Assembly: GCA_965216945.1 (NCBI GenBank)
Contig: CBDCGU010000003.1
Location: 899,868 to 963,867, forward strand
Length of the DNA: 64,000 bases
Direction: 5' to 3'
From: Acidimicrobiia bacterium
Lineage (GTDB): Bacteria; Actinomycetota; Acidimicrobiia; Spongiisociales; UBA5794
Of this stretch, positions 19,693 to 58,292 are shown piece by piece. Position 1 is the first letter of the stretch. Each line of letters begins with the position of its first letter. Made by a program: the position numbers and the translations under genes. The notes below the pieces were generated by a model. That model saw only the letters and a list, made by a program, of their open reading frames with translations. It made no database searches and was not told the DNA's origin.

Positions 19693-21759
19693 TCAGACGA
19701 ACGCCGACGCAAAGATCAGGCTGACGATGGTCATCACCTTGATGACGATGTTCATCGCCGGCCCCGAGGTGTCCTTGAAAGGATCGCCGATCGTGTCGCC
19801 GACCACGGCGGCTTTGTGAGCGTCTGAGCCCTTGCCGCCGAACGCACCCGCTTCGATGAACTTCTTGGCGTTGTCCCATGCGCCGCCGGCGTTGGCCATG
19901 AAGATGGCGAGCAGGAAGCCGGTCAGGAGCGCTCCTGCCAGCAGACCGCCCAGGGCCCGGACCGAGACGAAGCCCACAACGAGGGGCAGCGCCACGGCGA
20001 GGGAGCCGGGGATGATCATCTCGCGGAGCGCGGAGCGGGTCGAGATGTCGACGCATTTGGCATATTCGGGCCGCACCCCCTCCTTGCCCTCGCGCAACCC
20101 TGCGATCTCGCGGAACTGACGGCGGACTTCCTCGATCATCTGATTGGCGGCGCGCCCGACGGCCTGGATCGTCATGGAAGCGAACAGGAAAGGGAACATG
20201 CCGCCGAGCAGCAGCCCGACGGTCACATGGATGTCGAGCAGATCGAGGACGGGGAGATCGCCACCTGCGTCGACCACGGCTTGCCGGAACGTGAAGAACA
20301 GTGCCAGTGCGGTCACGGCGGCCGAGGCGATGGCGAAGCCCTTGGCGACGGCAGCGGTGGTGTTGCCGAGTGAATCGAGCGCATCGGTCGCTTCGCGCAC
20401 CTCGGGGGGCAGATGCGCCATCTCGGCGATACCGCCGGCGTTGTCGGCGATCGGCCCGTAGGCATCCACCGACACGGTGATGCCGAGCGTGGCCAGCACG
20501 CCGATGGCGGCAACCGCGATGCCGTAGATGCCGGCCAGGTCGACGTCGAACGCCAGTTCGCCGCCCCAGTATGCCCCTGCCATGCCGAAGGCGACGACGA
20601 CCACCGAGAAGGCTGCCGAGCGCATGCCTTCGGCGATCCCGGCGAGGGCTACGGTTGCGGGCCCGGTCTGTGATTGGCGAGCAACTTCCTTCACGACCCT
20701 GTGATGGTCGCTGGTGAACCACTCGGAGATCTGACCGATCAGCCAGCCGACGACCAGGCCGATCACGACTGCGATCACGAGGCCCCAGGCGTTGTCGACT
20801 CCGTCGATGTCGTTGAACAGCAGCGGGGTGATGATCGCCACGCCGGCAACGGTGACACCCATCGCGACATAGGTGCCGCGATGCAAGGCGGCTGCGAGAC
20901 TGCCGCCGCCGGGCCGCACGAAGAAGGCGCCGACGATGGATGCGAACATGCCGATCGTGGCGATGATCAGCGGGTAGAAGAAGGCTTCCTCCTGAAACGC
21001 CGCCCCGGCGAAGGCGAATGCGGCGAAAGCGATGGGGGCGATCATCGAGCCCACATACGATTCGAAGAGGTCGGCGCCCATACCGGCGACGTCGCCGACG
21101 TTGTCGCCGACGTTGTCGGCGATGGTGGCCGGATTGCGCGGGTCGTCCTCGGGGATGCCTGCCTCGACCTTGCCGACGAGGTCGGCGCCGACGTCGGCCG
21201 CCTTCGTGTAGATGCCGCCGCCGACACGGGAGAACAGTGCGATGGAAGACCCGCCGAGACCGATCGCGGTCAGGACGTTGAACGGCTGATCGACCTCGAG
21301 CACTTCGACGAAGAAGATGTAGCCGACCGACATGCCCAGCAGACCGAGCCCCGCGACGGTGAAGCCCATCACCGCACCGCCCCGGAACGCAAGAGGCAGC
21401 GCCTTCTCGACACCGCCTTCCCGAGCCGCCTCGGCGGTGCGGGCGTTGGCCGCAGTGGCGATCCGCATCCCGACGTAGCCGGCAAGCGCCGACAAGACGG
21501 CACCGGTCACGTAGGCGATGGCCCCCCACGGACGACCCCAATCGAGGAACGCCAGGATGAGAATGGTCATCACGGCAACGAACACCGCAACAGCGGTGTA
21601 CTCGCGCCGTATGAAGGCCATGGCCCCTTCGCGAATCGCCCCCATCAGTTCCCGCATGCGATCGTTGCCCGGGCTCGCGCTGTTCACCTGTCCGGTGAAG
21701 AACCAAGCGAGTGCCAGAGCCGCGACTGCAGAAACGAGAGCGAGAATCAGCCAGATCAC
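19693..21759 (-). CDS. hppA: K+-insensitive membrane-bound proton-translocating pyrophosphatase
   Basis: 688 aa and about 16 TM. Conserved GGG..DNVGDNVGD and EYYT-like H+-PPase motifs. Confidence 0.95.
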   Translation of the reverse strand: MIWLILALVSAVAALALAWFFTGQVNSASPGNDRMRELMGAIREGAMAFIRREYTAVAVFVAVMTILILAFLDWGRPWGAIAYVTGAVLSALAGYVGMRIATAANARTAEAAREGGVEKALPLAFRGGAVMGFTVAGLGLLGMSVGYIFFVEVLEVDQPFNVLTAIGLGGSSIALFSRVGGGIYTKAADVGADLVGKVEAGIPEDDPRNPATIADNVGDNVGDVAGMGADLFESYVGSMIAPIAFAAFAFAGAAFQEEAFFYPLIIATIGMFASIVGAFFVRPGGGSLAAALHRGTYVAMGVTVAGVAIITPLLFNDIDGVDNAWGLVIAVVIGLVVGWLIGQISEWFTSDHHRVVKEVARQSQTGPATVALAGIAEGMRSAAFSVVVVAFGMAGAYWGGELAFDVDLAGIYGIAVAAIGVLATLGITVSVDAYGPIADNAGGIAEMAHLPPEVREATDALDSLGNTTAAVAKGFAIASAAVTALALFFTFRQAVVDAGGDLPVLDLLDIHVTVGLLLGGMFPFLFASMTIQAVGRAANQMIEEVRRQFREIAGLREGKEGVRPEYAKCVDISTRSALREMIIPGSLAVALPLVVGFVSVRALGGLLAGALLTGFLLAIFMANAGGAWDNAKKFIEAGAFGGKGSDAHKAAVVGDTIGDPFKDTSGPAMNIVIKVMTIVSLIFASAFV

Positions 21760-21839: not shown

Positions 21840-22388
21840 CTACGGTCGCCCTGCCACCCCCGGATGGCGCCGCAGACGCACCGCCCACAGCACACCGGCC
21901 GCCGCCAGCAACAACACACCGCCGAAGAGCGCGGGCCAGCTGGGGTCTTCTCTGAGATCTCGCGCCGGATCGACCACAACCAGGCTCGTTGCCTCGAGGT
22001 AGGACTCTCCGCCTCGCCCGGCATCGTGGAACCGCCAGATCCCCGTGACCGTCACCAGGGGTCCCCGCTGCCGGTAGCCACCGGGCGCTCCCAGCCCATC
22101 GACCAACCGCTCCGGCAGCCGCATGCCGATCCCGACGTTGCCACCGCTCAACGCCCCTCCCTCGAGAATGGGGTCGCGGGCATACCCGTCGTCGTTGAGC
22201 TGGGTCCAGACCCACCCATCGCTTCGCCTGCCGTAGTCACCGACCAGCTCCCCGCTCACGACGATCTCGCCTTCGTACGCCGCCGGGTCCAGCAACAGCA
22301 CCTCGACGGGCACCTCCTCGGCGGCGGTGGCAGGGCCTGCGCTCAACACGATGACAACGAGAATGGCGAGGGCGGCACAGACTCGCAT
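21840..22388 (-). CDS. secreted, C-terminally anchored hypothetical protein
   Basis: 182 aa. Signal peptide MRVCAALAILVV... and a C-terminal TM. ATG at 22388 overlaps the trkH stop (ATGA). The track ORF 21840..23786 is otherwise an alternate-frame artefact over trkH. Confidence 0.55.
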   Translation of the reverse strand: MRVCAALAILVVIVLSAGPATAAEEVPVEVLLLDPAAYEGEIVVSGELVGDYGRRSDGWVWTQLNDDGYARDPILEGGALSGGNVGIGMRLPERLVDGLGAPGGYRQRGPLVTVTGIWRFHDAGRGGESYLEATSLVVVDPARDLREDPSWPALFGGVLLLAAAGVLWAVRLRRHPGVAGRP

Positions 22389-23938
22389 CAACGCCCCCGA
22401 ACCCACGAGTAGGCGAATCCCAGCAGCGCGAAGACGGCAACGAACTCGAGACGGCCTGCCCACATCTGCAGCATGTACGTGATCTTCAGCAGGATCGGCA
22501 TGGAGGGCGACGTGACGCCCACGGACAGCCCGACCGAGCCACCGGCGCTGACCGACTCGAAAAGGGCTCGATCGAGAGGCACGCCGTACGCCAGCCCGAC
22601 CCCGGTGCCAAGGAGGTAGAGCGCGACGTACAGCAGCGTCGCCCCCATCACCGCACGGGCCACGTCGTCGGTGAGACGACGCTTTCCGAACTGGTAGTAG
22701 GCCTGGCTGACAACGGCACCTTCCGGAAGGAGCATCTGCTTCACCTGGCCGGTCATCGTCTTCACCGTCAACCCGATGCGCAGCGACTTCACACCCCCTG
22801 CGGTCGATGAGCCCATGCCTCCCAGGGCCATGGCGATCGCCATCCCACCGAACGCCAGGCCCGGCCAGGTCGACAGTTCGACGCTGGGAACGGTGGCAAA
22901 CCCGGTCCCGGTGTGAGCCGACAGCAGCTGAAAGAATCCCTGGCGGGTGAGACCGGCGACGCTGCCGTACGTGCCGGCCGCGGCGAGGCCGAGCATGGTG
23001 AGGAAGAGGGTGAGGCCGACGGTCGTGAGGATGGTCCGCGTTTCGAGATTGACCAGCATCTGGCGGCGCTTGCCGCTCCAGAGTGCGAAGTGGACTCCAA
23101 ACGACACCGCTCCGGCCACCATCAACACGGCCGTCACGGCTTCGTAGATCGCCGAGTGGTAGTACCCCAAGCTCGTGCTCTGGGGGGCGAACCCGCCGGT
23201 GTCGAAGCCGGCGAAGAAGACCATCAGACCGTGGAAGAACGACCGGCCGGGGTCGAATCCGAGCACGATCCAGCCGATGAGGCCGAGGACGAGCACTCCC
23301 GCGATCAGGTGGACGATCGCCACAACCCATATGAACCGCGCCGTCGACCTCACGGACGGCAGGATGCGCTCGTCGCGTGCCTCTCCGAGGTACAGCGTGA
23401 TGGCGCCGGCGCCGGTGAACAGCGACAGGGCCGCGATGATGATCCCCTGGCCTCCCAGGAAATGCAGCAGGTGACGCCAGAAGTTGAGCGACCCCGCCAG
23501 GTGGTCGAGGTCCTGGACGAGGCCGAGACCGGTGGTTGACAGGCCGGACATGGCATCGAAATAGGCGTCGAGCGGGTCGGCGAAGTGGCCGGAGAGGAGG
23601 AACGGGATCGAGCCGATGAGGGGCACGATCAACCACGTGAGAGCGACGACGACCATGCCGTGGCTCCAGTCGAGCCGCGGCTCGCAGGGTACGGGGCCAG
23701 AGAGCAACACGCCGCACACGGCGAAGATGCCGCTCATCAGCACGAAGGAAGCCAGCGGCGCCCACTCGGTGGTGACGATCGCCCACACCGCCGGAGCGGC
23801 GGCAGCTGCGGCCACGACGAGGAAGATGCGGCCGAGGTAGTAGCCGATGACGACGAAGTCGTCCGTGACTGGCCTGATCAGCACGTCAGACCACGGCGAG
23901 CAGGGCGAGGGCCATGACCCACGCCACGAGCGCTCCAA
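22388..23938 (-). CDS. trkH: Trk system potassium uptake protein TrkH
   Basis: TrkH/KtrB fold with repeated selectivity-filter-like G motifs (GLSTTG, GFDTGG, GTGFAT, GGSVG). Start is uncertain: TTG at 23938 or GTG at 23884. Confidence 0.9.
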   Translation of the reverse strand: MERSWRGSWPSPCSPWSDVLIRPVTDDFVVIGYYLGRIFLVVAAAAAAPAVWAIVTTEWAPLASFVLMSGIFAVCGVLLSGPVPCEPRLDWSHGMVVVALTWLIVPLIGSIPFLLSGHFADPLDAYFDAMSGLSTTGLGLVQDLDHLAGSLNFWRHLLHFLGGQGIIIAALSLFTGAGAITLYLGEARDERILPSVRSTARFIWVVAIVHLIAGVLVLGLIGWIVLGFDPGRSFFHGLMVFFAGFDTGGFAPQSTSLGYYHSAIYEAVTAVLMVAGAVSFGVHFALWSGKRRQMLVNLETRTILTTVGLTLFLTMLGLAAAGTYGSVAGLTRQGFFQLLSAHTGTGFATVPSVELSTWPGLAFGGMAIAMALGGMGSSTAGGVKSLRIGLTVKTMTGQVKQMLLPEGAVVSQAYYQFGKRRLTDDVARAVMGATLLYVALYLLGTGVGLAYGVPLDRALFESVSAGGSVGLSVGVTSPSMPILLKITYMLQMWAGRLEFVAVFALLGFAYSWVRGR

Positions 23939-26496: not shown

Positions 26497-27945
26497 TCAG
26501 CGACGCCACAGCTCCGGGGTGAACAGCAGGAGGACCGGGAACAGCTCCAGCCGGCCGAGCACCATGAGGAACGACAGCACCACTTTGGAGCTGTCGTGAA
26601 CGACGGTGTAGTTCTGGGTGGGCCCAACCGCATCCAGACCAGGACCGACGTTGCCGAGCGAGGAGGCAACGGCTGAGGCGACGGTGAGGATGCCCGTGTC
26701 GCTGCCGAGGCTCTGTTCGAGGATGCCGACGAGCATGGTCCCGGTCATGAAGGCGAACATGTAGAGCAGGAAGAAGGATTGGACCGATTCCACGATCTGG
26801 TCCGGCACGGTTTCCTTGCCCAGCCGGACCACGAAGACGCCACGGGGGTGGATCACCCGCCGCAAATCGGCGCGGCTGGCTTCGTAGAGAACTCCCAGCC
26901 GGTAGGGCTTCACCGAGCCGCCGGTGGACCCTGCCATCCCGCCGACGAAGAACAATCCGAACACCATGATGCCGAGCGCCACCGGCCAGGCGCCAAAGTC
27001 GGCCGTGGCGTAACCGGTCGTCGTGACGATGGACACGACCGTGAAGATCGCATCCCGGAGGGTGTCGCCGGCCGCCCCGCCCCATGTGCCGATCGTCGCC
27101 ACCGCCGACGCCACGACGATGATGCCGCCATACAGCTTGAACTCACTGTGTCCGAGGTACGCGGTGGGGTTGCGCATCGCTCGGTAGTGGAGCGCAAACG
27201 ACGTGCCGGCCAGCACCATGAACACGATCACGATCCATTGTGAATACGCCGAGAACGCGTTCATCGAAGATGCGTCCGTCCCGAACCCGCCGGTCGACAT
27301 GGTTGTGAGCGCGTGGGCGACCGACTCGAAGAGGTTCATGTCACCGACCCAGAGCAGCAGGATCTCAGCACACGTGAAGCCGACGTAGACGAGCCACAGG
27401 CGCCTGGCCGTCTCCCTGAACCGCGGCGTCAAGCGGTCGGGCGTCGGCCCCGGTGACTCGGCGCGGGCCAGCTGCACACCGCCGATGCCGAGCAGTGGCA
27501 GGACCGCGATCGAGAGCACGATGATTCCCATGCCACCCAGCCATTGGGTGAGTGCCCGCCAGAAGAGGATGCCGTGGCTCAGCTCTGCGGGGTCGGGGAC
27601 GATCGAGGCACCCGTCGTCGTGAATCCCGCCGCCGACTCGAAGAGGGCGTCGACGACCGAGCTGATCTCCCCGGTGAGGATGTAGGGAAGGGTTCCGAAG
27701 ATGGTGGTGGCGAACCAGGCGAGGCCGACGATGGCGAAGCCTTCACGAGCCGACAGCGACTTGGGTGCGGCAAACTGCTGGCGGGCGCCGAGCCCGATGA
27801 CCAGGGTGAGTAAGGCGGCGATGGCGATGCGGAGAGCCGTTCCCCACTCCTGATAGAAGAGCGATACGACGGCGGGGGCGATCATGGCGAGCCCCGAGGC
27901 GCCGATGACCACGCCGATGATATGGAGGAGGGGTCGGATCGCCAT
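26497..27945 (-). CDS. trkH: Trk system potassium uptake protein TrkH (second copy)
   Basis: About 482 aa from the internal ATG (MAIRPLLHIIG). TrkH G motifs (GFTTTG, GGFGT, TTTGYAT). Stop lies 1 nt from the trkA ATG. Confidence 0.9.
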   Translation of the reverse strand: MAIRPLLHIIGVVIGASGLAMIAPAVVSLFYQEWGTALRIAIAALLTLVIGLGARQQFAAPKSLSAREGFAIVGLAWFATTIFGTLPYILTGEISSVVDALFESAAGFTTTGASIVPDPAELSHGILFWRALTQWLGGMGIIVLSIAVLPLLGIGGVQLARAESPGPTPDRLTPRFRETARRLWLVYVGFTCAEILLLWVGDMNLFESVAHALTTMSTGGFGTDASSMNAFSAYSQWIVIVFMVLAGTSFALHYRAMRNPTAYLGHSEFKLYGGIIVVASAVATIGTWGGAAGDTLRDAIFTVVSIVTTTGYATADFGAWPVALGIMVFGLFFVGGMAGSTGGSVKPYRLGVLYEASRADLRRVIHPRGVFVVRLGKETVPDQIVESVQSFFLLYMFAFMTGTMLVGILEQSLGSDTGILTVASAVASSLGNVGPGLDAVGPTQNYTVVHDSSKVVLSFLMVLGRLELFPVLLLFTPELWRR

Positions 27946-27946
27946 G

Positions 27947-29275
27947 TCAGCCGGAGAGTTGTTCGACCTCTGGGATCGCCTCCGGCAATGCGATGACGAT
28001 GAGACGATCGGCGAAGTGGATCTCCGTATCGCCTCGGGGGACAAACACCTCGTTGCCGCGTATCACACCGCCGACGATCATCTCGTGCGGTAGATGAAGG
28101 TCACGCAACGTCTTCCCGGCGGCCGGGCTGTTGCGACCGACCTCGATCTCGAGGGCCTCGGCATCGGAGTCCTGGAACGTGACGACGCTGTGGATGCGAC
28201 CCCGGCGCACAAATCGGAGGATCTCGGAGGCGGCGGAGAGCCGGCTCGACACACCACCGTCGATACCGACGCCGGCGAGGAGGCGGACGAGGTCCATACG
28301 ATGGAACCGAGCGACCGCGGTCGGAACGCCAATTGCCTTGGCGACCAGACAGCCGAGAATGTTGATCTCGTCCCACCCGGTGAGGGCGAGGACGATGTCG
28401 GCGGTCGACACCCCCTCCGATGACAGCAGTCGCGGGCTGGTCGGGTCGCCGCAGATGCCAGTGATCCGCGGGTTGTCGGTTGCGATCTTGCGGACACGGC
28501 TCGGGTCCTGGTCGACGAGGATGGTGTGGATCCCCGCCTGGCAGAGAGTCCGCGCCGTCAGCGCGGCGAGCCGCGTTGCACCGAGGATCGCCACCTTCGA
28601 TGCGGGTGTGTCGTTGATGCCGAGGAGCCGAAATGGCTCTTCGGTCTTGTCGGTCTCCGACATGAACAGGACGTGATCACCAGGGAGCACTTGGGTCGAG
28701 CCGCGGGCGATCACGGTTTCTCCATCCCGGATGACGGCGACGACGAGCCATGACCACTGCGTCACGCTGTTGCGCAACTCGGCCAGCGTGTGGCCCGCAA
28801 CAGGGGCCTCCGGCGAGATGTAGCCGCCAACCAGATCCAGGCGGCCGCCGGCGAACTCGATCAACTCGGACACGCCGCGCTGCTTCACCAACAGGAGCAG
28901 TTCCTTGGCGGTCGTCTCTCCGGGGTCGATGAGCAGGTCGACGCCCAGGTTCTCCGCTTCGTCGCGAAGCTGCGGGTCTTCGACACGGGCGATCCGGCGA
29001 GGTGCACCGAGCCGGGTGGCGGCGTGGGCGGCGAGCACGTTGACGGCGTCTGATGAACTGACGGCGATGAAGAGATCGGCCTTCTCGACGCCGGCGGCGT
29101 CGAGCGTCTCGAGGCTGGCGCCGTTGCCGTGGATGACGAGGCAATCGATCTGTTCCTGGACCTCGGCGGCGCGCACCGAATCCGCTTCGATCACGACCAC
29201 ATCCTGGCCTTCGAGGGACAGCCGCTCGGCCAGGTATGAACCGACCGCTCCGGCTCCCACTATCACCACTCGCAT
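27947..29275 (-). CDS. trkA: Trk system potassium uptake protein TrkA (full-length, double RCK)
   Basis: 442 aa with two RCK_N/RCK_C repeats (VIVGAGAVG and AILGATRL Rossmann motifs). Confidence 0.9.
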   Translation of the reverse strand: MRVVIVGAGAVGSYLAERLSLEGQDVVVIEADSVRAAEVQEQIDCLVIHGNGASLETLDAAGVEKADLFIAVSSSDAVNVLAAHAATRLGAPRRIARVEDPQLRDEAENLGVDLLIDPGETTAKELLLLVKQRGVSELIEFAGGRLDLVGGYISPEAPVAGHTLAELRNSVTQWSWLVVAVIRDGETVIARGSTQVLPGDHVLFMSETDKTEEPFRLLGINDTPASKVAILGATRLAALTARTLCQAGIHTILVDQDPSRVRKIATDNPRITGICGDPTSPRLLSSEGVSTADIVLALTGWDEINILGCLVAKAIGVPTAVARFHRMDLVRLLAGVGIDGGVSSRLSAASEILRFVRRGRIHSVVTFQDSDAEALEIEVGRNSPAAGKTLRDLHLPHEMIVGGVIRGNEVFVPRGDTEIHFADRLIVIALPEAIPEVEQLSG

Positions 29276-29307: not shown

Positions 29308-30597
29308 GTGAGGCTAACGACCCTGTGGTGCCCAACGCTAGATGACTTCGACTGGCAGAGCCCTGGGTCGTCGGTACTATCCCGCCTCGTGCCTCGTCGC
29401 CTTGCCGCCCTCGCGGCCGCCCTCGCAGTGATCGTCACCGGCTGCTCTGCCGTGTCCTCCGCACCCAAGCAGGCTGAGACGGTGGTCGCGCCCACGACGA
29501 CAACAACCACCACCACGACGACGACAACAACCACGACTTTGCCGCCCGCACCGTCGGTGGTGATCAGCGGCGACATCGACGCCGGTCTCGCCGCCGCCGC
29601 CGAGGGCTTGTACAACTACCTCCACGACTCGACGCGGCCCGTTCCGGTTGGGGTCAGTCAATCGCTGCTCGACCACGCAGCGGGTCATGCGGCCCCCGAG
29701 GGGGAGATCGCGGCCGTCGCTACGTCGGCGCAAATGTCGAATGGCGACAGCGTCGCCGTTGTGGTGACCGAAACCGACACGCTGCTGCTCCTCGACGCCG
29801 GCAAGGGGTGGGTGGTGGTTGGGGCGATGCTGGCGGGGCTTCCACCGTGGCTGGGTGAGGCCTCGCCACGGACGCTCCTGGTACTCGGCACCGACGCACG
29901 GGTTGGTGAGAGCCAGCTCGGCTTGCGTGCGGACAGCGTCCACATCCTCACCATGATCCCTTCGACCGGTCAGGGGGCGTTCCTCGGATTCCCCCGCGAC
30001 TCGTGGCTCCGCGGTTCGAAGCTCACGAATCTGATGCCGAGAGGCGGCCCCGACCTCATGATGGAGGTCATCAACGAGGTCAGCGGGATCCCGCTGGAGG
30101 GCTGGGTGGCTGTGGGGTTCGAAGGGTTCCTTGCCCTCATGGGAGAGCTGGGACCGCTCGAGATCGATCTGCCAACGGAGATGCGCAGCGGCAACAACTG
30201 GGCTGACTATCCGGCAGGCCCCCAGGTACTCGATCCGAAGCTCACGCTTCGCCTCGCCCGGATCCGCAAGGGATTGCCCCGCGGTGACTTCGACCGCACT
30301 CTGAACCAAGGTCGCATCACGCTGGCGGCGATGGAGGCAGTGAAATCGATGGGTATCGAGATGCTGCCGCGCTGGGTGGCGGTATTCGACCAGCACGGCT
30401 TCACCAACCTGTCGACGGAGGCGCTCTTCACCTTCCTCGCAACGGCGTACGTCTCGTCTCCGGAGCTGATCACCAATGCGGTGGTGCCGGCGGTCACCGG
30501 TACGGTGGGCGAGGCGTCGGTCGTCTTCATCGTGGACGACGCCGAGGCGGTGTTTCGCGATCTCGACGATGGTGTTCTCGACGAGACCGGCTCCTGA
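29308..30597 (+). CDS. LytR-CpsA-Psr (LCP) family lipoprotein
   Basis: Lipobox VTGCSA, a T15 linker, then the LCP domain (LLVLGTDAR, ADSVHILTMIP). Confidence 0.85.
   Translation: MRLTTLWCPTLDDFDWQSPGSSVLSRLVPRRLAALAAALAVIVTGCSAVSSAPKQAETVVAPTTTTTTTTTTTTTTTLPPAPSVVISGDIDAGLAAAAEGLYNYLHDSTRPVPVGVSQSLLDHAAGHAAPEGEIAAVATSAQMSNGDSVAVVVTETDTLLLLDAGKGWVVVGAMLAGLPPWLGEASPRTLLVLGTDARVGESQLGLRADSVHILTMIPSTGQGAFLGFPRDSWLRGSKLTNLMPRGGPDLMMEVINEVSGIPLEGWVAVGFEGFLALMGELGPLEIDLPTEMRSGNNWADYPAGPQVLDPKLTLRLARIRKGLPRGDFDRTLNQGRITLAAMEAVKSMGIEMLPRWVAVFDQHGFTNLSTEALFTFLATAYVSSPELITNAVVPAVTGTVGEASVVFIVDDAEAVFRDLDDGVLDETGS
29494..29537 (+). repeat. ACN codon microsatellite encoding poly-Thr (T15) inside the LCP gene
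   Basis: An (acg/aca/acc) run is visible in the sequence. It is a low-complexity, slippage-prone tract. Confidence 0.7.
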
Positions 30598-30640: not shown

Positions 30641-30997
30641 ATGGCACACCTATTGCTCGGCCGCTGCACGGTGACGATGCATGAGATGCAGGACTTCACG
30701 ACACGCATTCAGAACTGGGAGCAAGACCTGTTCGGCACAGATGCTGCCCCGGATTTCCACGGCGTGTACCTCCAGCGTGATGAGCCGGGCAACGTCGTGA
30801 TCGAGTTGCGTTTCTCGACGCGGGAGGTCGCCGACGCCTGCATCGCCGCCGGACACATCGCTCGACTGCGCGACCAGGTGTTCGAATGCACCAAGTACGA
30901 TCCCGGCGCCTTCATCCGCTATGACCTGTTCTACGGTGCCTCGAAGGACGGTGAGCGCACCTACTTCGGCGAGACCGTCCACCACCACGAAGGCTGA
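30641..30997 (+). CDS. hypothetical protein (possibly ABM-like alpha+beta barrel)
   Basis: 118 aa with high GC3 and no recognisable motifs. The start could also be the ATG at 30677. Confidence 0.4.
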   Translation: MAHLLLGRCTVTMHEMQDFTTRIQNWEQDLFGTDAAPDFHGVYLQRDEPGNVVIELRFSTREVADACIAAGHIARLRDQVFECTKYDPGAFIRYDLFYGASKDGERTYFGETVHHHEG

Positions 30998-31013: not shown

Positions 31014-31400
31014 TCACGGAGGCAGCTCCGTCGGAACGAACTCTGCGCGGCTCGAAGCAGGCACCGAACGAGTGCCGAACAGGAAGAGGTCAGCCGTGGC
31101 GACGACCACGACCCGCACGGTGCGTGGCCGCCACGTCGGATCCAGGGGACACTCGCAGCTGACCAGCACCGCATGGTTCTCCGCGGCGAATCGAGCGGCC
31201 TCCGCCGCAGGCCCACCCGAGCCGCCGAATCCCGCGAAGGTGAGCGGTGCGGCTGCCAGAGCCGCAGCATCCGCCGCAACCGTGGCGCGGCTGCGTGCAT
31301 GCAGGTAGACGGCAACGTCGCCGAGCACCGCCCCGATCAGCAAGGTGAACACGGCCACGCCGACCATGGGCAGCGTTGCGACTCCCCGCTCGTGACTCAC
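31014..31400 (-). CDS. TadE/TadG-like pilus assembly protein (second copy)
   Basis: 128 aa with an N-terminal hydrophobic pseudopilin-like segment. GTG start overlaps the upstream stop (GTGA). Confidence 0.6.
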   Translation of the reverse strand: MSHERGVATLPMVGVAVFTLLIGAVLGDVAVYLHARSRATVAADAAALAAAPLTFAGFGGSGGPAAEAARFAAENHAVLVSCECPLDPTWRPRTVRVVVVATADLFLFGTRSVPASSRAEFVPTELPP

Positions 31401-31768
31401 TGCTCGACGCGCATGCTCGCCCGACCCTTCAGCTCGATGACCGCACCGCCGAACATCGCCGGCGCAAGCCGGTGTGGCAGCGTGATCACCACCTCGGCAC
31501 TGGCCCCGACGACATGCGGCCTCCGTACCGAGATACGGGCGTCGTCGGCAGCACCACCCAGGGCCGCCCGTGCCGCCGCCAACGCCTCGGACGGATCGGG
31601 GCTCGTTGCCGCTTCACGCGCCCCCTCCCGTGCGGCGTTGATCAGCTCGAGCTGGGCCCGCGCCACGACTGCGACCTCCGCAACGGCCAGGACGACAAGC
31701 AACACCACGGGGATGACCAGCGCAAACTCCACGGCGACGCTGCCGCTGCCGCGACGCAGCCCGCTCAC
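31397..31768 (-). CDS. tadE: TadE-like pilus assembly protein
   Basis: TadE N-terminal motif SGSVAVEFALVIPVVLLVV. GTG at 31768 overlaps the flp stop (GTGA). Confidence 0.7.
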   Translation of the reverse strand: MSGLRRGSGSVAVEFALVIPVVLLVVLAVAEVAVVARAQLELINAAREGAREAATSPDPSEALAAARAALGGAADDARISVRRPHVVGASAEVVITLPHRLAPAMFGGAVIELKGRASMRVEQ

Positions 31769-31944
31769 ACGTACGACGTGACCTTCGACATGACCGCATC
31801 GAAGAGCGCCGCCAGCGTCCCGGTGGAGGCCGCCCACAGGATGAGCGTGAGAGCGATGGCGGCGGCGGCAACGATCACCAGGGCGTATTCCGCCGTTGCC
31901 TGTCCCGATTCGTCGTTGAGTAGACGGTCGTTCGGTAGGTGCAT
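31765..31944 (-). CDS. flp: Flp/Fap family pilin precursor, 59 aa
   Basis: Not on the ORF track. Hand translation of the reverse strand gives MHLPNDRLLNDESGQATAEYALVIVAAAAIALTLILWAASTGTLAALFDAVMSKVTSYV. It has the canonical G/XXXXEY prepilin cleavage motif and a hydrophobic core, and AAGGAG sits 8 nt upstream of the ATG. Confidence 0.8.
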   Translation of the reverse strand: MHLPNDRLLNDESGQATAEYALVIVAAAAIALTLILWAASTGTLAALFDAVMSKVTSYV

Positions 31945-31990
31945 GGGAGTCTCCTTGTCTCTTCCCGGATCCGCCGGGTGCGGAGGGAAG

Positions 31991-32605
31991 TCACAGCGAG
32001 AACCGCTCGAGGGCGCCGACCATCGCCGGCGCCACGGTGAGCACGACGAAGCCAGGGAGGATCAGCAACGCCAGCGGGAACATGAGGACAACGGGAAGGC
32101 GCCGAGCCGCCGCCAGGCGTGCGGTGCGGCGTTCTGCTCGCAGCTCGTCGGTGAAGGCCTGCACCGCCGGCGCCAGCGGAGCACCGGTGGTGAGCGCTCG
32201 GCCGGCGACGCGGCAAAGCCGGCCGAGTCGGTTGTCGCCGGACACCTCGAGAATGGCGGCGTTCCCGATGCGGGTCGTGCGTCGCACGACGTCGTCCACA
32301 TCCGCCGCAAGTCCACTCCGAAGATACGGGCCGCAGAGTCGCAGCGACTCGGTGAAGGACAAACCGGCACTCAGGCCCAGACCGACGAGGTCACCGACGA
32401 GGGGCAGCTCGTCAGCGGTCCGCTGCTCCGCCTCGCGACGAGCCCGGAGCCGCCGAGACGATCGCCACGTCAGCCCGGCGGACAGCCCTGCGGCCGCCAG
32501 CAGCGGGCTCACGATCGCAAGAGCTGAGGGTGCGATGAGCCGCCGAAACCGGCCTGGGGCGTGAATCGCCAGACCAACCAGGCACAGCGCAAACGCCGAG
32601 CGCAT
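31991..32605 (-). CDS. tadC: Tad secretion system protein TadC (GspF-like)
   Basis: 204 aa from the internal ATG, with 3-4 TM and a T2SS-F-like cytoplasmic segment. ATGA overlap with tadB. Confidence 0.75.
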   Translation of the reverse strand: MRSAFALCLVGLAIHAPGRFRRLIAPSALAIVSPLLAAAGLSAGLTWRSSRRLRARREAEQRTADELPLVGDLVGLGLSAGLSFTESLRLCGPYLRSGLAADVDDVVRRTTRIGNAAILEVSGDNRLGRLCRVAGRALTTGAPLAPAVQAFTDELRAERRTARLAAARRLPVVLMFPLALLILPGFVVLTVAPAMVGALERFSL

Positions 32606-33288
32606 CACGACCCGGCCCTCCGCACGATGACGGTCACCGCGACAAGGCCCGTGGTCAGCAGCCCGAACCCAATGGCCAGGATGACCACACCTCCACCGCC
32701 GATACGAGCGAGCGATGCGATGCGGCCCGTCATCAACGCATACAGCGCGGCCACGATCGGCAACCCACCCACGACCCAAGCCGACAGGCGTGCCTGGGCG
32801 GTGGCGGCGACACGTTCCCGGTCGGCATCGGCCTCGTCCGCAGTCACCGCTGCCAATCGATCGAAGACCTCGGCTGACCTGCCACCGGCGACACCGGCGA
32901 ACTCGAGCGCCGGCGCCAGATGCCCGCCGGATCTGGGGAAGCTCCTCACCAGGTGGGGTGCAACACCACCGAGCGGGAGCCCGGCACCGAGTCTGCGCAG
33001 CGCCGGTGCCAACCCGAGCTCAGGGGTGCGCTCGGCGGCGTGGACCAGGGCCAGACGGAGCGAGGCGCCGCCCCGCAGTTCCGACGCCACCGCCCGGTGA
33101 TATCTGGACTCCACCGCCCAGGCCGGCTCGGCCGGCTTGCGCGGCACCACCTGAAGTGCAACGACGAGGATTGCCGCACCCATGGCGGCTCCCGGATGGA
33201 TCACGCCGGCTCCGAGCAGCACGAGAACCGGCCACGGGACACCCCACAGCAGCGCGATGGCGAACACGACGGGGATCACCACGACCAC
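32605..33288 (-). CDS. tadB: Tad secretion system protein TadB (GspF-like)
   Basis: About 227 aa. GTG at 33288 overlaps the tadA stop. Confidence 0.75.
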   Translation of the reverse strand: MVVVIPVVFAIALLWGVPWPVLVLLGAGVIHPGAAMGAAILVVALQVVPRKPAEPAWAVESRYHRAVASELRGGASLRLALVHAAERTPELGLAPALRRLGAGLPLGGVAPHLVRSFPRSGGHLAPALEFAGVAGGRSAEVFDRLAAVTADEADADRERVAATAQARLSAWVVGGLPIVAALYALMTGRIASLARIGGGGVVILAIGFGLLTTGLVAVTVIVRRAGS

Positions 33289-34337
33289 ATCTCCTCGATC
33301 CCGTCGGCCCCGACACGGCCGATGCGCTGGACGACGCGCGCCTCGCGGCGGCGGGCGACGTGGACGACGATGTCGATCGCCGACCACAGCAGCCGCCGAA
33401 CCGCGGCCTCGGAGAAGCCCTCACCACCCGACATCGCCAGAGTCGTGAGCCGCCACAGTGCTTCATCTGGACCGTTGGCGTGCACCGTCGACAGCGAACC
33501 ATCGTGCCCGGTGTTGAGAGCCTGGATCATGTCGAAGGCCTCCGGACCCCGCACCTCACCAACGACGATCCGGTCGGGTCGCAGTCGCAGTGCATGACGA
33601 ACGAGAGTCCGCAGCGTCACCTCGCCTGCACCTTCGGCGTTTGCCGGGCGGGCCTCGAGCCGGACCACATGACCGGACAGTCGCAACTCCGCTGCGTCCT
33701 CGATGGTGACGACTCGGTCGGCGGACGGGATCTCCGCGGACATCAGGTTGAGAAGCGTCGTCTTGCCGCTGCCGGTGCCGCCGCACACGAGGACGTTCTG
33801 ACGATCGTGGACCGCCGTGCGCAGAATCGCAACCGCTTCCGTCGAAGCCGAGCGGTGTTCCACCAGCTCGTCAAGCGACTGGACGGCCTGGGTGAAGCGG
33901 CGAATCGCCACGACCGGACCGTCTACGGATACAGGGGGGATGACGGCGTGGAGTCGGGAGCCATCGGGAAGACGGGCATCGACGGCCGGGCTGGCGCGAT
34001 CGAGCCGCAATCCCAGGGGGGCGATCATCCGTTCCACGGCGGCGAGCACTGCCCCCGCACCGGCGAACCGCACGGTCGACGACTCCAGCCGGCCGTTGCG
34101 CTCGATCCAGACTGTGCCATCTCCGTTGACGAGAACGTCGGCGACGTCGGGCTGCCGCAGCAGTGGCTCGACAGGACCCATCCCGACCAGCGCATCGACC
34201 ACCGCCGTCACCGTGTCCGGTGGCGACAGCGGAGCCTCCGCCGCAAGCATGCGGCGCGCCGCCTCCTCCAGGGCACCACGCTCCAAGGGGACGTCCGACT
34301 CGATGAGCCGCTCCACGAGTCGATCGATCACGCCCAT
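33276..34337 (-). CDS. tadA: Tad/Cpa secretion ATPase TadA/CpaF
   Basis: Walker A GGTGSGKTT, Asp box, Walker B VGEVRG and His box of the VirB11/CpaF family. Start placed at the ATG at 34337. Confidence 0.9.
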   Translation of the reverse strand: MGVIDRLVERLIESDVPLERGALEEAARRMLAAEAPLSPPDTVTAVVDALVGMGPVEPLLRQPDVADVLVNGDGTVWIERNGRLESSTVRFAGAGAVLAAVERMIAPLGLRLDRASPAVDARLPDGSRLHAVIPPVSVDGPVVAIRRFTQAVQSLDELVEHRSASTEAVAILRTAVHDRQNVLVCGGTGSGKTTLLNLMSAEIPSADRVVTIEDAAELRLSGHVVRLEARPANAEGAGEVTLRTLVRHALRLRPDRIVVGEVRGPEAFDMIQALNTGHDGSLSTVHANGPDEALWRLTTLAMSGGEGFSEAAVRRLLWSAIDIVVHVARRREARVVQRIGRVGADGIEEMWSW

Positions 34338-34864
34338 GCCACGCTCCACACCGAGCGCCACGCTCTCATCCACCGTGATGGCCCCGGACGGCGCCCTTCG
34401 AGCAGCGAGCGGATCGTGGCGGCACGGGGCCGCGGCAGCACTACGCCGTCCAGACGCTGCGGCGCCGCCCACGGGCCCCGCTGATACACGGCCGGACCAC
34501 GATCCACGGTCAGCGGGGTGAGCGGCAATACGGGAACCACCTGTTCCCGATCCGGCGCTTCACCGGCCGGGAGGCGCACGACGACGGCAGGCCATCCTTC
34601 GACCAGCGCCGCCACGACCCCTGCCGACGCATCGGCCGGTATGCCTCCGTTCCCCACGATGGCAACGCCGCGCCGCATCGGACGCAGATCATCCCGCCGC
34701 GGGCCTTCGGCCACGAGCCGCGCCAACGTCAGCTCACCGGGGTACGCCGGCCCTGCAGGATCGATATCGACCACCAACGCCGTGTCTGCCGCCGCCGCCA
34801 AAGCGATCGGCGCCACCGCCCCGAGGAGCTCGTCCTCCGGTGACCATGTGTGCAGCACCGCCAT
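34328..34864 (-). CDS. degenerate TadZ/CpaE-like protein (Rv3660c-like, no Walker A)
   Basis: About 178 aa from the internal ATG. First gene of the tad operon. No GxxxxGK[ST] motif is present. Confidence 0.5.
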   Translation of the reverse strand: MAVLHTWSPEDELLGAVAPIALAAAADTALVVDIDPAGPAYPGELTLARLVAEGPRRDDLRPMRRGVAIVGNGGIPADASAGVVAALVEGWPAVVVRLPAGEAPDREQVVPVLPLTPLTVDRGPAVYQRGPWAAPQRLDGVVLPRPRAATIRSLLEGRRPGPSRWMRAWRSVWSVAWA

Positions 34865-48373: not shown

Positions 48374-49941
48374 GGCCTGCTCCTTTCAACGTCCATGACG
48401 AGGCGTAGCGTGCGTCGCTCGCCGTCGGTCATGACCTTCAGCTCGTCCACCATGTGCTCGATGAGATAGACGCCCCAGCCCCTCGGCGCTTGCTCACCGG
48501 CCAGCTTGGCGGCGAGATCCGGACTCGTGGCCGCACCCATCTCACGATGCCCGCCCCGGTCGGTGACCTCGACAATCACGGACCGGGCCGACGCCAGCAC
48601 CCGAATGTCGACCGGCACGTCTGCGCTGAAGCGGTTGCCGTGCTCGATCGCATTCATCACCGCCTCGGAGACCGCAGTCTCCAGCTTCTGTACCTGGGCG
48701 GGCTCCAGGTCGAGATCCTCGACGGCAGAGACGACGCGGCGCACCGCCGCACGCTCGTTGCCCTCTTCGCTGGCGACCGAGAAGTCGGCCAGGATCTTGG
48801 TGCGGGCGTCGATCGACTGGGCGGCTTCTCCGGTGTGCTCGAAGCTGACGAGCGTCACGTCGTCCTCCACGTCGCCGCTGCCGTCGGTGAACTCGGCGAA
48901 CTCGGCGAGGAGATAGTCGATGAGGCCGTCACCCCCGGGATACTTGCCGACGAGCCCCATCAGCCGGGGGAAGCCGAACATTTCGCCGGCCGCGCTCCGG
49001 GCCTCGGCGAGCCCGTCGGAGTGGAATAGGAGGGAGCTGCCGACCGCCACCTCGAAGTCGACCTGGTCGTAGGCAGCTTCTTTCATGAGACCGAGGGGGA
49101 GCCCGGTGGCACGGACCTCCATCACCCCGGACGCCGCCCGCAGGTACGGCAGGTTGTGCCCGGCGTTCGCCATGGTGAGCTTGCCGGATGCCGGGTCGAA
49201 GGTGGCGTACTGGCAGGTGACGAACATGTTGCGGGGGATGTCGGCCACCAGCGACGCATTGACCCGCTCCAGCACGTAGGCGGGCTCGCCGGCCTGCTGC
49301 GCCGCTTCCCGCAACAGGCTGCGGGTCGTCGCCATGACGAGGGCCGCCGGCACGCCCTTGTCGGCGACGTCGCCGATCGCAAACCCGAGGCGGCCGTCTT
49401 CGAGGGGTACGAAGTCGTAGAAGTCGCCGCCCACTTCTCGCGCCGACTGGTAGAACGTGCCGATCTTCCAGCCGTCCACCTCGGGCAGCTGTGCCGGCAG
49501 GAAGTTCTGCTGGATCAGCCGAGCGACGCGTAGCTCCTGGGCGATCCGTTCCCGCTCCCTCACCTCATCTGCCTGCGTCCGCATGAGCTCGGCGAGGCGC
49601 AGCGCGGGGGCGGCGCGGGTGGCGAGGCGTTGCAGCAGCCGCCGATCCTCCGAGTTGTACGGCCGGCCGCTGCGCCGCGGCCCCAGCGACAGGATGCCGA
49701 CGAGCTCGCCTCCGGTGACGATCCCCACCGCCAACTCCACTCCCGCCTCCCGCAGTGAGAGGACGAGCGGGGTTTCGACGTCGAAGGTGTCGACGTCGAC
49801 CGGCGCATCGACGGTCATGAGATAGGCAACGAACGGGTCGGTGGGATCGATCCGGTGGCGCGCCGCTGCCGGCGGCTCGCCGGCCGTCGCCGTCTCGCCG
49901 CCGTCCTGGCGACGACCCGAGCGGGCGCTCCACCACCTCAC
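48370..49941 (-). CDS. fusion protein: partial GAF - PP2C (SpoIIE/RsbU) phosphatase - HATPase_c (RsbW-type Ser kinase)
   Basis: 523 aa from the GTG at 49941 (GTGA overlap with the upstream gene). GAF beta-strand motifs (PLVLSL, GELVGILSLG), PP2C motifs GDFYDF, GDVADKG and FHSDGL, and kinase N box NAIEHGN plus G boxes DRGGH and RGWGVYLI. Confidence 0.85.
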   Translation of the reverse strand: MRWWSARSGRRQDGGETATAGEPPAAARHRIDPTDPFVAYLMTVDAPVDVDTFDVETPLVLSLREAGVELAVGIVTGGELVGILSLGPRRSGRPYNSEDRRLLQRLATRAAPALRLAELMRTQADEVRERERIAQELRVARLIQQNFLPAQLPEVDGWKIGTFYQSAREVGGDFYDFVPLEDGRLGFAIGDVADKGVPAALVMATTRSLLREAAQQAGEPAYVLERVNASLVADIPRNMFVTCQYATFDPASGKLTMANAGHNLPYLRAASGVMEVRATGLPLGLMKEAAYDQVDFEVAVGSSLLFHSDGLAEARSAAGEMFGFPRLMGLVGKYPGGDGLIDYLLAEFAEFTDGSGDVEDDVTLVSFEHTGEAAQSIDARTKILADFSVASEEGNERAAVRRVVSAVEDLDLEPAQVQKLETAVSEAVMNAIEHGNRFSADVPVDIRVLASARSVIVEVTDRGGHREMGAATSPDLAAKLAGEQAPRGWGVYLIEHMVDELKVMTDGERRTLRLVMDVERSRP

Positions 49942-51242
49942 GTCTCGGCCTCCCCTCGTGACACCGGGAGCCAGAGCTCGATCGTGGCCGGCTGGAAGGC
50001 GCCTTCGGCAGCGGCGATGAGGTCGGGGCCGACGCTGTCGATGCGGCTGCGGGTGGCGAGCCGCTCGTCGAAATCGTCGAGCGAACGCTCCAGGTCCCAT
50101 CGTTGCCTGAAGAACACCCGGTCCACGACCCGTTGCAGCCGCTCTCGCAGCGGCAGGAAGAGTGCGGCGGCAGCCCCCGTGGCGAGCACCAGGGCCAGGG
50201 TGTTGTCGCGGATGCCGAACGACTCGCTGGAAATGGCCTGGAACATGGCGACGAGGGCGAAGTACGCGGCGAACAGCACCGACGTCAGCGTGAAGTACAC
50301 GACCGTGCGATTGATCGCCAGGTCCAGGTCCCACAGCCCGCGTTTCACGATCAGGTACACGAGCCCCAGCCCGAAGATGAGGGGCAGGGCAGCAACGAGA
50401 GATTCCACCAAGATTCGCCGCACCAGCTCACCCCCGGCCCGCGCCTGTGATTCCGACAGCGCAGCGAGCTGATCGGAGAACATGAGCACCGGAACGAAGA
50501 TGGCGGCCATCACCGCGGTCAGGCCCAAGACGGCGCGGCGCGTCGGATCGTTGGTGCGCACCAGTTGCACCAACTGCACCAGCCAGCCTGCGGCAACCAC
50601 GACGAGGACCCCAAGCGCCCCGGACTCCCACAAGGCGTCGTCTCCGACGAACACGAAGCCCGTGCCGAGCAGGATGAACCAGCCCGCGATCGCGAGGGCC
50701 AACCATCTGATGTTGCGGCCATCGGGAAGCACGAAGAGCATCCCCACCAGCGAGATGAAGAAGCTGATGCCCATCACGAGGGCGGCGATGCCGACGATGA
50801 GTGTGTCTTCTTCGAAGATCTCACCTGCTGTCACCCCAAGCCCGGAAATGAGGAACCACGACACGAAGACGGCGGCCCAACCGCGCCGGGTCCGCCACAC
50901 GAGCCATCCGACGAAAACCGAGCCGGTAAACAGCACGAGCATGCGGGAGACGACGAGGGCTCCGTGCCACTCGGCGCTGAGCCCGAGATCGGAGAGGGCG
51001 CGGAGCTGCGCGGATGAGAGGTGGTAATGCCCCGGGCCCCCGAACCAGGTGACGGGGCCTACTGTCGTCGCATCTCGCCACATGAGTCCCAGGCTGGCCG
51101 CAAGCAACACCGCGCCGCCCGCAGCCAGCACGAGCCACCACCACCGCGCCAGCCGGAGCGCGAGCCCGTCCGGTCGGGGATCTTGGGACAGCCACCTCAC
51201 GAGCGCCCTCACCGTGCCACCTCCGTCGAGTCCGGGATCCAC
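49938..51242 (-). CDS. polytopic membrane protein with C-terminal cytoplasmic GAF-N-terminal-like segment (sensor candidate)
   Basis: 434 aa, about 10 TM. The 90-aa C-terminal tail ends ...ATIELWLPVSRGEAET. A paralogue of the upstream gene. Confidence 0.7.
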   Translation of the reverse strand: MDPGLDGGGTVRALVRWLSQDPRPDGLALRLARWWWLVLAAGGAVLLAASLGLMWRDATTVGPVTWFGGPGHYHLSSAQLRALSDLGLSAEWHGALVVSRMLVLFTGSVFVGWLVWRTRRGWAAVFVSWFLISGLGVTAGEIFEEDTLIVGIAALVMGISFFISLVGMLFVLPDGRNIRWLALAIAGWFILLGTGFVFVGDDALWESGALGVLVVVAAGWLVQLVQLVRTNDPTRRAVLGLTAVMAAIFVPVLMFSDQLAALSESQARAGGELVRRILVESLVAALPLIFGLGLVYLIVKRGLWDLDLAINRTVVYFTLTSVLFAAYFALVAMFQAISSESFGIRDNTLALVLATGAAAALFLPLRERLQRVVDRVFFRQRWDLERSLDDFDERLATRSRIDSVGPDLIAAAEGAFQPATIELWLPVSRGEAET

Positions 51243-52891
51243 AACGCAACATCGACCGACCCGATGGAGGACTGCACGGCGTGGACCAGACGGTCCTGGA
51301 CCGCCGCGCTTGTCAGCTCATCGCGGACGGACGCGGTGAACGAGGCCAGCACCTCGTCGGCTTGGGCCTTGGTGGGGAACCAGCGATGGTCGATCCAGGA
51401 TTGAAAGCTGCGCCGCAGCGGGCGGTAGGACACCGCGATCACGCTGGTGGCAACGAGGATGGCCAGCGGGCGTCCGGCATCGCCGAACACGACCCCGGAG
51501 ACGGTCGTGGTGGCGATCACGATGGCGACGTACACGACCGCCAGCAGCGGCGTCACCATCGCCACCACGGCCGCCCGGTTCCAGAACAGCTTGATGTCCC
51601 ACCATCCCTGACGCCGCACCAGATGCAGCACCCACAGTCCCAGCAGCACGGGCGTCGCCAGGAACAGAGTGAGGTAGATCTGTTGCCACAGGAAGGCAGC
51701 GACGCTCATCCCGGCCGCGGCGTCATACAGCGCCTGCCCCGGCACGAGCCACAGGACCAGCACGATCATCGAAGCGAGGAGCAGGCGCGCCTCGCGTCGC
51801 TCCTCTGGTGACGCCTCCCGGTAACGGAAGACCTGCGACGCCATTGCGCCTCCCAGAACTCCAAGCGCACCCAGGGCGCCCGTCACCCACACCCAACCCT
51901 CGTCGCCGGACGACAGGAGCCACGCCGCCAGCACCGCGGCCGCCGCAACACCCAACAGCTTGAGATACGTTCCTCGGAAGCGGCCATCGGGGAACGTATA
52001 GAGGAAGCCGCCGAACATGATGAATGTGAGAACGCCCAGCGCATCCCCGACGAGGGCGGCAATATCGCCTATGCCGGCCACACTCTCGAAGCGAACGGTG
52101 CTGCCATCCCCGAACGTGACGAGGGGGGCGACGGCGATGACGAGCGTCACGAAGAGCGCGATCCAATGGCGCGGCCGCTTGGAGTAGATGAACCATGCGA
52201 TGCCCAGCGCCGCCGCCGACACCAGGCCCTGGCGCACGACCACGAGCCACGGATACCAGTCGGGGACCGTCAGAGACCCGGCCGTCAACGCCAGAGCCGT
52301 TGCGGAGTTCAGGCGATAGAACCCGGGCTCACCGATCTCCTGCGGAGAGCCGGTGAAACCGGCGAGCTGGCTCGCTTCGATCCACAGACCGGCCAGGTAG
52401 ACAACGGTGACGGCAGCCGTGAGCCCAAAGACCACGAGCCAGGTCGCCCGTGTCGCACGCAGTCTCCGGCCGGCAAGCAGTCTCGGTTCCGAGCTCGGGG
52501 CGGCACTGCCCCGCAGCCGCCGCCTTGCTGCGATCGTCACCAGCCAACCAACCCCCAGGGCCGCCAGGACCTGCGCCAGCGCAAGGCTCATCATGATCGG
52601 GATCCACAACCAGCTGTCTTCGAGCGGCTCTATGAGCCCGGAGAGCGCAACGACGGCGGAGACGACCGGACCGAACAGCGCCAACAGCACCAGCGCCGCG
52701 ATGATCCAGCGGCGCCGCCGTTGATACCACGGCTCGTAGACGTTCCCGTGCGCCTCGGCGGCCGCTCGGCGGCGGTCGATCACGCCGCCGGCGACGAGCC
52801 AGACGACGATGGGCGTCAGGGCCAGCCCAGCGATCAGAAGGACATTCACCGCGGCCTCGATTCCACGCTCGATGTCATCATCACAGATCAC
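51209..52891 (-). CDS. polytopic membrane protein, paralogue of the downstream gene
   Basis: 560 aa, about 13 TM. Its C-terminal tail ends ...VDVALWIPDSTEVAR, the same position as in its paralogue. Overlaps the next gene by 34 nt. Confidence 0.7.
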   Translation of the reverse strand: MICDDDIERGIEAAVNVLLIAGLALTPIVVWLVAGGVIDRRRAAAEAHGNVYEPWYQRRRRWIIAALVLLALFGPVVSAVVALSGLIEPLEDSWLWIPIMMSLALAQVLAALGVGWLVTIAARRRLRGSAAPSSEPRLLAGRRLRATRATWLVVFGLTAAVTVVYLAGLWIEASQLAGFTGSPQEIGEPGFYRLNSATALALTAGSLTVPDWYPWLVVVRQGLVSAAALGIAWFIYSKRPRHWIALFVTLVIAVAPLVTFGDGSTVRFESVAGIGDIAALVGDALGVLTFIMFGGFLYTFPDGRFRGTYLKLLGVAAAAVLAAWLLSSGDEGWVWVTGALGALGVLGGAMASQVFRYREASPEERREARLLLASMIVLVLWLVPGQALYDAAAGMSVAAFLWQQIYLTLFLATPVLLGLWVLHLVRRQGWWDIKLFWNRAAVVAMVTPLLAVVYVAIVIATTTVSGVVFGDAGRPLAILVATSVIAVSYRPLRRSFQSWIDHRWFPTKAQADEVLASFTASVRDELTSAAVQDRLVHAVQSSIGSVDVALWIPDSTEVAR

Positions 52892-56324: not shown

Positions 56325-56449
56325 GGCGCCCACTGTTCCCGGCTCCCGTTCCCGAATCGTTACGAGCCCCGTAGCGCCGGCGCGATCGCCGTCACAGGTC
56401 TGACTTCCGGCCCTACACCCAATCGACCCCCACGACGTAACTTCCAGCC

Positions 56450-58271: not shown

Positions 58272-58292
58272 CTTTTGTATTCTAGTGCAAAT

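Follow-up and report, generated by a model that had tools for sequence, protein, structure and literature searches.

A 59-codon gene that very probably encodes the Flp-type prepilin of a tad operon in an Acidimicrobiia genome

The window, which is the whole 64-kb stretch of DNA analysed here and has a GC content of 67%, carries a tad operon in which all genes share a strand, successive genes are coupled or overlap, and the order is tadZ-like, tadA, tadB, tadC, flp, tadE and Rv3654c-like. This is the order tadZ-tadA-tadB-tadC-flp-tadE-tadF, with the tadZ slot filled by a protein with a MinD/ParA fold, and tadC is followed by flp after a 46-nt spacer. The features of the locus, in the direction of transcription, are as follows.

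34328-34864, minus strand: first gene of the operon, in the tadZ position, for a 178-aa MinD/ParA-fold protein lacking a Walker A motif
33276-34337, minus strand: tadA, for a secretion ATPase of 353 aa (T2SSE, PF00437, 189.5 bits)
32605-33288, minus strand: tadB, T2SSF domain (PF00482, 35.6 bits), with an approximate start (GTG, 33279-33288, by the tadA stop)
31991-32605, minus strand: tadC, 204 aa, T2SSF domain (PF00482, 35.4 bits)
31961-31990, minus strand: conserved 30-nt element between tadC and flp, made up of CTTCCCTCCG directly past the tadC stop and then a 5-bp GC hairpin
31951-31956, minus strand: Shine-Dalgarno sequence AAGGAG of flp, with a 6-nt spacer (ACTCCC) to the ATG
31765-31944, minus strand: flp, very probably a Flp-type prepilin gene of the DUF4244 subfamily, 59 codons plus the TGA at 31765-31767
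31903-31944, minus strand: codons 1-14 of flp, the predicted leader peptide MHLPNDRLLNDESG, whose last residue, Gly14, is predicted to lie just before the cut, at -1 (from alignment and model)
31768-31902, minus strand: predicted mature pilin QATAEYALVIV...TSYV, 45 aa, in which Glu is residue +5 and Tyr residue +6
31397-31768, minus strand: tadE, for a putative minor pilin or pseudopilin of 123 aa (TadE, PF07811, 47.5 bits) with a G/SVAVEF motif of its own
31014-31400, minus strand: gene for an Rv3654c-like TadE/G-type protein in the tadF position (Tad, PF13400, 25.1 bits), start codon uncertain

Translation of the minus strand from 31944 to 31765 gives the 59-aa product MHLPNDRLLNDESGQATAEYALVIVAAAAIALTLILWAASTGTLAALFDAVMSKVTSYV followed by TGA with no internal stop, so the 59-codon frame claimed in the preliminary description of this DNA is open throughout. 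Upstream of Gly14, back to the preceding in-frame stop, the ATG at 31944 is the sole start codon. The AAGGAG that had been placed 8 nt upstream is indeed present, while the spacing had been misjudged, the measured spacer being 6 nt. At the other end of the gene the junction reads TAC GTG TGA, in which the out-of-frame GTG at 31768-31766 starts the TadE frame (VSGLRRGSGSVAVEF...), and the described overlap of the flp TGA by the tadE start is thus seen directly in the sequence. The absence of flp from the ORF track used at the first stage had been put down to a length floor, and this is correct since its product of 59 aa falls one residue under the 60-aa default of the ORF lister. The further claim, that automated pipelines with a 60-aa floor would miss the pilin, is contradicted by public data: NCBI/ENA-derived protein sets already include a protein with exactly these 59 residues, on a contig of 4,156,462 bp, and its homologues are named as DUF4244 or Flp proteins. 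The exact TadE (123 aa), TadC (204 aa), TadA (353 aa) and 178-aa proteins are also in public data, on a contig of equal length. The omission of flp is confined to the first-stage ORF track and is an artefact of it. Gene, family and operon type were all known beforehand, and the pilin gene is not novel.

A concern about an ORF that is this short and of low complexity is that it could have arisen by chance, or could encode a small membrane peptide that is not a pilin, in a GC-rich genome; spurious long ORFs are frequent at high GC, and 135 ORFs of at least 40 aa were counted in 16 kb. Against this, the GC content of flp at codon positions 1, 2 and 3 (0.63/0.47/0.82) is as in the neighbouring genes, and the alternative frames that overlap it look non-coding (one has 0.73/0.87/0.50). 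Across the 46 codons that begin with Gly14, flp and its counterpart in L010, the closest related locus, show 19 synonymous and 3 non-synonymous codon differences, distributed over codon positions 1, 2 and 3 as 3/1/21. In the same comparison the synonymous and non-synonymous differences are 18/5 with L009, 18/6 with L004 and 23/5 with L031, and these counts point clearly to purifying selection on flp. An exhaustive profile search, moreover, retrieved 961 representatives of 50%-identity clusters at E ≤ 1e-3 (418 of them at E ≤ 1e-10). The codon-position GC, the synonymous excess, the number of family representatives and the fixed synteny, together with a match that passes a curated Pfam threshold, led us to reject the reading of flp as a chance ORF or non-pilin peptide, which we consider extremely improbable.

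The sequence of the product bears the features of a Flp prepilin. The short leader, the hydrophobic helix and the EY motif noted earlier were all found again on re-reading: a 14-residue leader ends in the Gly of G14-QATA-E19-Y20, and ALVIVAAAAIALTLILWAAS comes after this motif. Flp prepilins have been described as proteins of 50-80 aa that contain this motif ahead of a hydrophobic stretch and are encoded in a tad locus (PMC4322843); the product here has 59 aa and the motif with its hydrophobic stretch, and its gene is flanked by tadC and tadE with tadA and tadB upstream. The preliminary description had drawn the cut as ESGQ/ATAEY, which is one residue too far, because its own G/XXXXEY rule puts the cut after Gly, with Glu at +5. 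Flp pilins are cleaved after the Gly of G/XXXXEY (PMC4322843), and by analogy the cut is predicted after Gly14, as ESG/QATAEY. In an alignment of 30 homologues, the Gly, Glu and Tyr of the motif are invariant in 30/30 sequences; Gly14, residues A16-V23 (ATAEYALV) and much of the helix do not vary and Gln15 hardly does, and the leader is variable in both length and sequence. The AlphaFold2 model (mean pLDDT 83.7) places helices at residues 13-41 and 43-58 with pLDDT above 90, and in it the leader is of low pLDDT, disordered and devoid of secondary structure. The predicted mature pilin has a computed mass of 4,571 Da. Its first residue, the +1 Gln15 (31900-31902, minus strand), is nearly invariant in this branch of the family; once exposed by cleavage, an N-terminal Gln could conceivably cyclise to pyroglutamate, leaving the N-terminus blocked. 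The methyltransferase domain found in other type IV prepilin peptidases is missing from those of the TadV class (PMC4322843).

The assignment of the protein to a family depends on which profile is consulted. The check proposed in the preliminary description, a Flp/Fap pilin HMM, returned a score under the curated threshold (Flp_Fap, PF04964; 16.8 bits with a gathering score of 32.2; E = 0.0058). The match to Pfam DUF4244 (PF14029) passes, at 30.6 bits with a gathering score of 27 (E = 2.2e-7), and aligns residues 8-41 with profile positions 6-39 of 54; NCBIfam gave no family match. A search of 5.8 billion proteins found 178 relatives, and the 120 of them that were listed are 49-97 aa long and have a precomputed PF14029 match in 120/120 cases. 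Two homologues among the matches listed bear both PF04964 and PF14029, and the names given among these matches include many instances of 'Flp pilus assembly pilin Flp' (IMG) as well as 'DUF4244 domain-containing protein' (NCBI). The sequence used for Caulobacter PilA has 100% identity with a database entry called 'Flp family type IVb pilin', and it matched Flp by BLASTP at E = 2e-6. Profile-profile comparison (hhalign) of the families of Flp and PilA gave 77% probability and E = 2e-5 over 52 columns, a moderate probability obtained with shallow profiles on both sides (Neff about 1.9); it aligns the Gly, Glu and Tyr of one family with those of the other, and Flp's family has three extra residues in its hydrophobic core. 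The alignment profile of the pilin, run against the sequences of solved structures, returned chance matches only (E at least 0.7) and no pilin, and Foldseek gave no match of the Flp model in the PDB because the query is too short and a single helix. These sequence comparisons indicate that DUF4244 is an actinobacterial sister family of Flp_Fap with the G/XXXXEY motif in register. The earlier identification as a Flp-type prepilin is therefore upheld, by the tad operon setting, the motif and the similarity to PilA, with DUF4244 as its family. Taken together, the ORF very probably encodes the prepilin of an actinobacterial tad operon, one of Flp type (type IVc/Tad) that belongs to the DUF4244 branch.

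The Pfam DUF4244 family shows nothing of substance that differs from the Flp of the window. What marks the Acidimicrobiia branch within DUF4244 is that +1 is almost always Gln and that the leader, at 8-14 residues, is short. The likeness to the PF04964 pilins Caulobacter PilA and Aggregatibacter Flp1 extends to size, leader, G/XXXXEY register, hydrophobic helix and location in a tad locus, whereas Flp of the window differs from canonical Flp/Fap pilins in falling below the PF04964 gathering score and in the three additional residues of its core.

The same arrangement of genes recurs around related pilins. Among 80 related loci examined by tblastn, which are mostly from Acidimicrobiia metagenome-assembled genomes, TadA lies upstream in 73/80 and TadC in 56/80, and TadE lies downstream in 36/80, all in the same order. 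To judge by its closest relatives, the window is probably Acidimicrobiia DNA. For the genes downstream of flp, the 123-aa TadE that starts from the GTG overlapping the flp TGA is exactly the public gene call, and the 128-aa version of the Rv3654c-like protein from the GTG at 31400 differs from the public call. A consensus scan for promoters and terminators over the tad operon gave no sites. Converging on the end of the operon is a 118-aa ORF (30641-30997, plus strand) whose GC3 (0.81) resembles that of coding sequence and which has no matches in Pfam or NCBIfam; it is found in the same place only in the four closest loci (L004, L009, L010 and L031).

Flp could in principle be a minor or accessory pilin, with the major subunit encoded elsewhere in the genome. 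Several flp paralogues are common in tad loci, M. luteus depends on two distant tad clusters (PMC4322843), and the window represents 64 kb of a genome of roughly 4.16 Mb. Within the window, a scan of all six frames for G-x4-E-[YFL] followed by a hydrophobic stretch found two occurrences only, the flp ORF and the adjacent TadE, so that flp is the sole small Flp-like ORF and a second flp paralogue is absent from the 64 kb. The gene also sits in the canonical slot between tadC and tadE in the related loci, and its product is the most conserved protein of the operon, being 88% identical to its counterpart in L010 compared with 47-75% for TadB, TadC, TadA, TadE and the Rv3654c-like protein. We thus regard a merely accessory role as unlikely and retain Flp as the probable structural subunit. 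No prepilin peptidase of the Peptidase_A24 family (PF01478) was detected by Pfam among the stop-to-stop frames of the 64-kb window that are at least 100 aa long and have at least three hydrophobic segments. An unlinked tadV is the actinobacterial norm (PMC4322843), and the absence of the peptidase from the window is for this reason expected and uninformative.

The 178-aa protein in the tadZ position, the first of the operon, has no Pfam or NCBIfam matches, and its homologues likewise have no Pfam match and, where named, are called hypothetical protein. Its AlphaFold2 model (pLDDT 92.3) has FleN, MinD and Soj as its top Foldseek matches (E = 6e-4, TMq 0.55-0.66). After the first strand the sequence reads SPEDELLGAV, and because no GK[ST] of a Walker A motif is present there, the protein is read as lacking a P-loop. 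On the basis of the model, it appears to be a MinD/ParA-like protein that is shortened, lacks a P-loop and may take the place of TadZ.

One of the closest described arrangements is that of Mycobacterium tuberculosis Rv3660c-Rv3654c, which corresponds to tadZ, tadA, tadB, tadC, flp, tadE and tadF, with Rv3656c treated as flp, and its gene order is identical to that of the window operon (PMC9531140). The order has been described as typical of actinobacteria (PMC4322843). The likeness to M. tuberculosis extends to a HAD-IB hydrolase gene (TIGR01490, 176 bits), divergently transcribed upstream of the tad operon, and to the best NCBIfam matches of the neighbouring proteins, which are models for Rv3655c and Rv3654c and TIGR03819. 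All three score just below their curated cut-offs: TadA has 332.2 bits with TIGR03819 (cut-off 373.15), TadE 37.5 bits with TadE_Rv3655c (NF041390; cut-off 40) and the Rv3654c-like protein 50.6 bits with TIGR03816 (cut-off 50.95). Such scores would fit a divergent Acidimicrobiia version of the operon. Other differences from M. tuberculosis are the tadZ-position protein, which in the window is just 178 aa long and has no P-loop, and the pilin itself: Rv3656c, compared here by its description, has 68 aa and a Met after the cleavage Gly (PMC9531140), whereas the Flp of the window has 59 aa and a Gln. The only experimentally visualised actinobacterial Flp filament that we found in the literature is that of Micrococcus luteus (Mlut_18170; PMC4322843), which resembles the present system in its operon order, its unlinked tadV and a mature pilin of about 4.4 kDa (PMC4322843) compared with the 4.57 kDa predicted here. 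It differs in having a prepilin of 77 aa instead of 59 aa, in lacking TadZ and in needing two clusters (PMC4322843).

From this gene content a route from precursor to filament can be proposed. The 59-aa precursor would enter the membrane by way of its hydrophobic helix, and an unlinked TadV-class aspartic prepilin peptidase would then cut off the 14-residue leader after Gly14 to leave a 45-aa mature pilin of about 4.6 kDa with Gln as its first residue and Glu at +5. Polymerisation of the mature pilin into a thin filament would be expected to fall to the TadA ATPase and the TadB/TadC platform, and TadE and the Rv3654c-like protein, with their related N-termini, may prime this filament as minor pilins. 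We found no experiment in the literature on any Acidimicrobiia Tad pilus. The filament may serve in adhesion or in DNA uptake, and a possible but less probable alternative is that the same protein and machinery build a pilus for competence (DNA uptake), or a short pseudopilus for secretion, in place of an adhesive Tad pilus. The M. tuberculosis proteins Rv3654c and Rv3655c have reportedly been found to be secreted (PMC2864267), which would suit a secretion function. In M. luteus, actinobacterial tad genes and the Flp pilin are needed for natural transformation (PMC4322843). No competence gene turned up in the window, in a look that was not aimed at comEA or comEC. The sequence does not tell competence or secretion apart from adhesion, and the difference lies in downstream function and not in the identity of the gene; a Flp-type prepilin remains our preferred description of it under each of these uses.

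The value of the result is thus mainly one of correct annotation: apart from tadV, the Tad pilus operon of this Acidimicrobiia genome looks complete. The loss of the structural subunit below a 60-aa ORF floor is a warning for the first-stage track and not for public pipelines. PF04964 used alone under-detects actinobacterial Flp pilins, so surveys of Tad pili must include DUF4244 (PF14029), a family that in Pfam and NCBI names is still of 'unknown function' although its motif, its context and its profile similarity each indicate Flp. The only item described here that could open something new is the element between tadC and flp.

This 30-nt element begins directly past the tadC stop, and its hairpin occupies 31964-31978 (minus strand) with the loop CGGAT. 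The general form is CTTCCCNCCG followed by a GC hairpin with a CGGNN loop. The sequence in the window folds at -24.5 kcal/mol with z = -2.74. The hairpin pattern alone (CGGNN loop on a stem of 5 bp or more) was rejected as evidence since it occurs about 0.46 times per kb in this DNA; such hairpins are common in GC-rich DNA, and only the composite with the CTTCC..CCG tract is therefore meaningful. Defined as [CT]TTCC[CT]..CCG and then a hairpin whose loop is CGGNN and whose stem has 5 bp or more, the composite motif has 13 occurrences in 1.87 Mb (both strands), which are those of the window and 12 related loci. All 13 lie just upstream of flp and on the flp strand, and there are none elsewhere. 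A covariance model derived from the composite sequences retrieved L009, which had been left out of its building, at the same site (22.4 bits, E = 0.018) and gave nothing besides these loci below E = 0.08, so that the element is present in 14 loci including the window, the others being L001, L002, L003, L004, L006, L009, L010, L011, L031, L032, L045, L051 and L077. Stem pairing was read locus by locus, MAFFT having misaligned L002 in the element alignments. The stems vary in sequence yet still pair (CCGGC/GCCGG, CCCGG/CCGGG, GCCGGG/CCCGGC, GTCGGC/GCCGAC and GGTCGA/TCGACC), and one further stem, CCGGC/GTCGG, holds a G-U pair. An Rfam scan of the tadC-flp spacer returned chance matches only (E at least 6.8). 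In the minimum-energy fold of several relatives, but not uniformly, the pyrimidine tract pairs with the Shine-Dalgarno region.

Our results suggest that the element may be a clade-restricted cis element, probably an RNA, that acts on flp expression. We would propose only tentatively that it is an undescribed cis-acting RNA by which pilin output is tuned relative to the assembly machinery. Possible mechanisms would be processing or stabilisation of an flp transcript through a 5′ hairpin, or pairing of the pyrimidine tract with, or its competition for, the flp Shine-Dalgarno sequence.

Some features in the rest of the window are recorded here as separate observations. Four polytopic membrane proteins are predicted, at 49938-51317 (minus), 51209-52891 (minus), 59532-61463 (plus) and 55674-56501 (minus), with 10, 12, 12 and 5 hydrophobic segments, respectively; the first three have no Pfam family at E ≤ 0.001 and the last has none at E ≤ 0.01. 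The ORF at 59532-61463 (plus) comes after an ORF with an MMPL domain (58074-59396). A LytR-CpsA-Psr family protein (PF03816) is encoded at 29308-30597 (plus) and has 15 consecutive threonines close to its N-terminus; in the antisense frame this stretch appears as a poly-Val run in a spurious ORF. Two genes for TrkH-family cation transporters, at 22388-23938 (minus) and 26497-28044 (minus), lie less than 6 kb apart, and the pair is adjoined by an H+-pyrophosphatase gene at 19693-21759.
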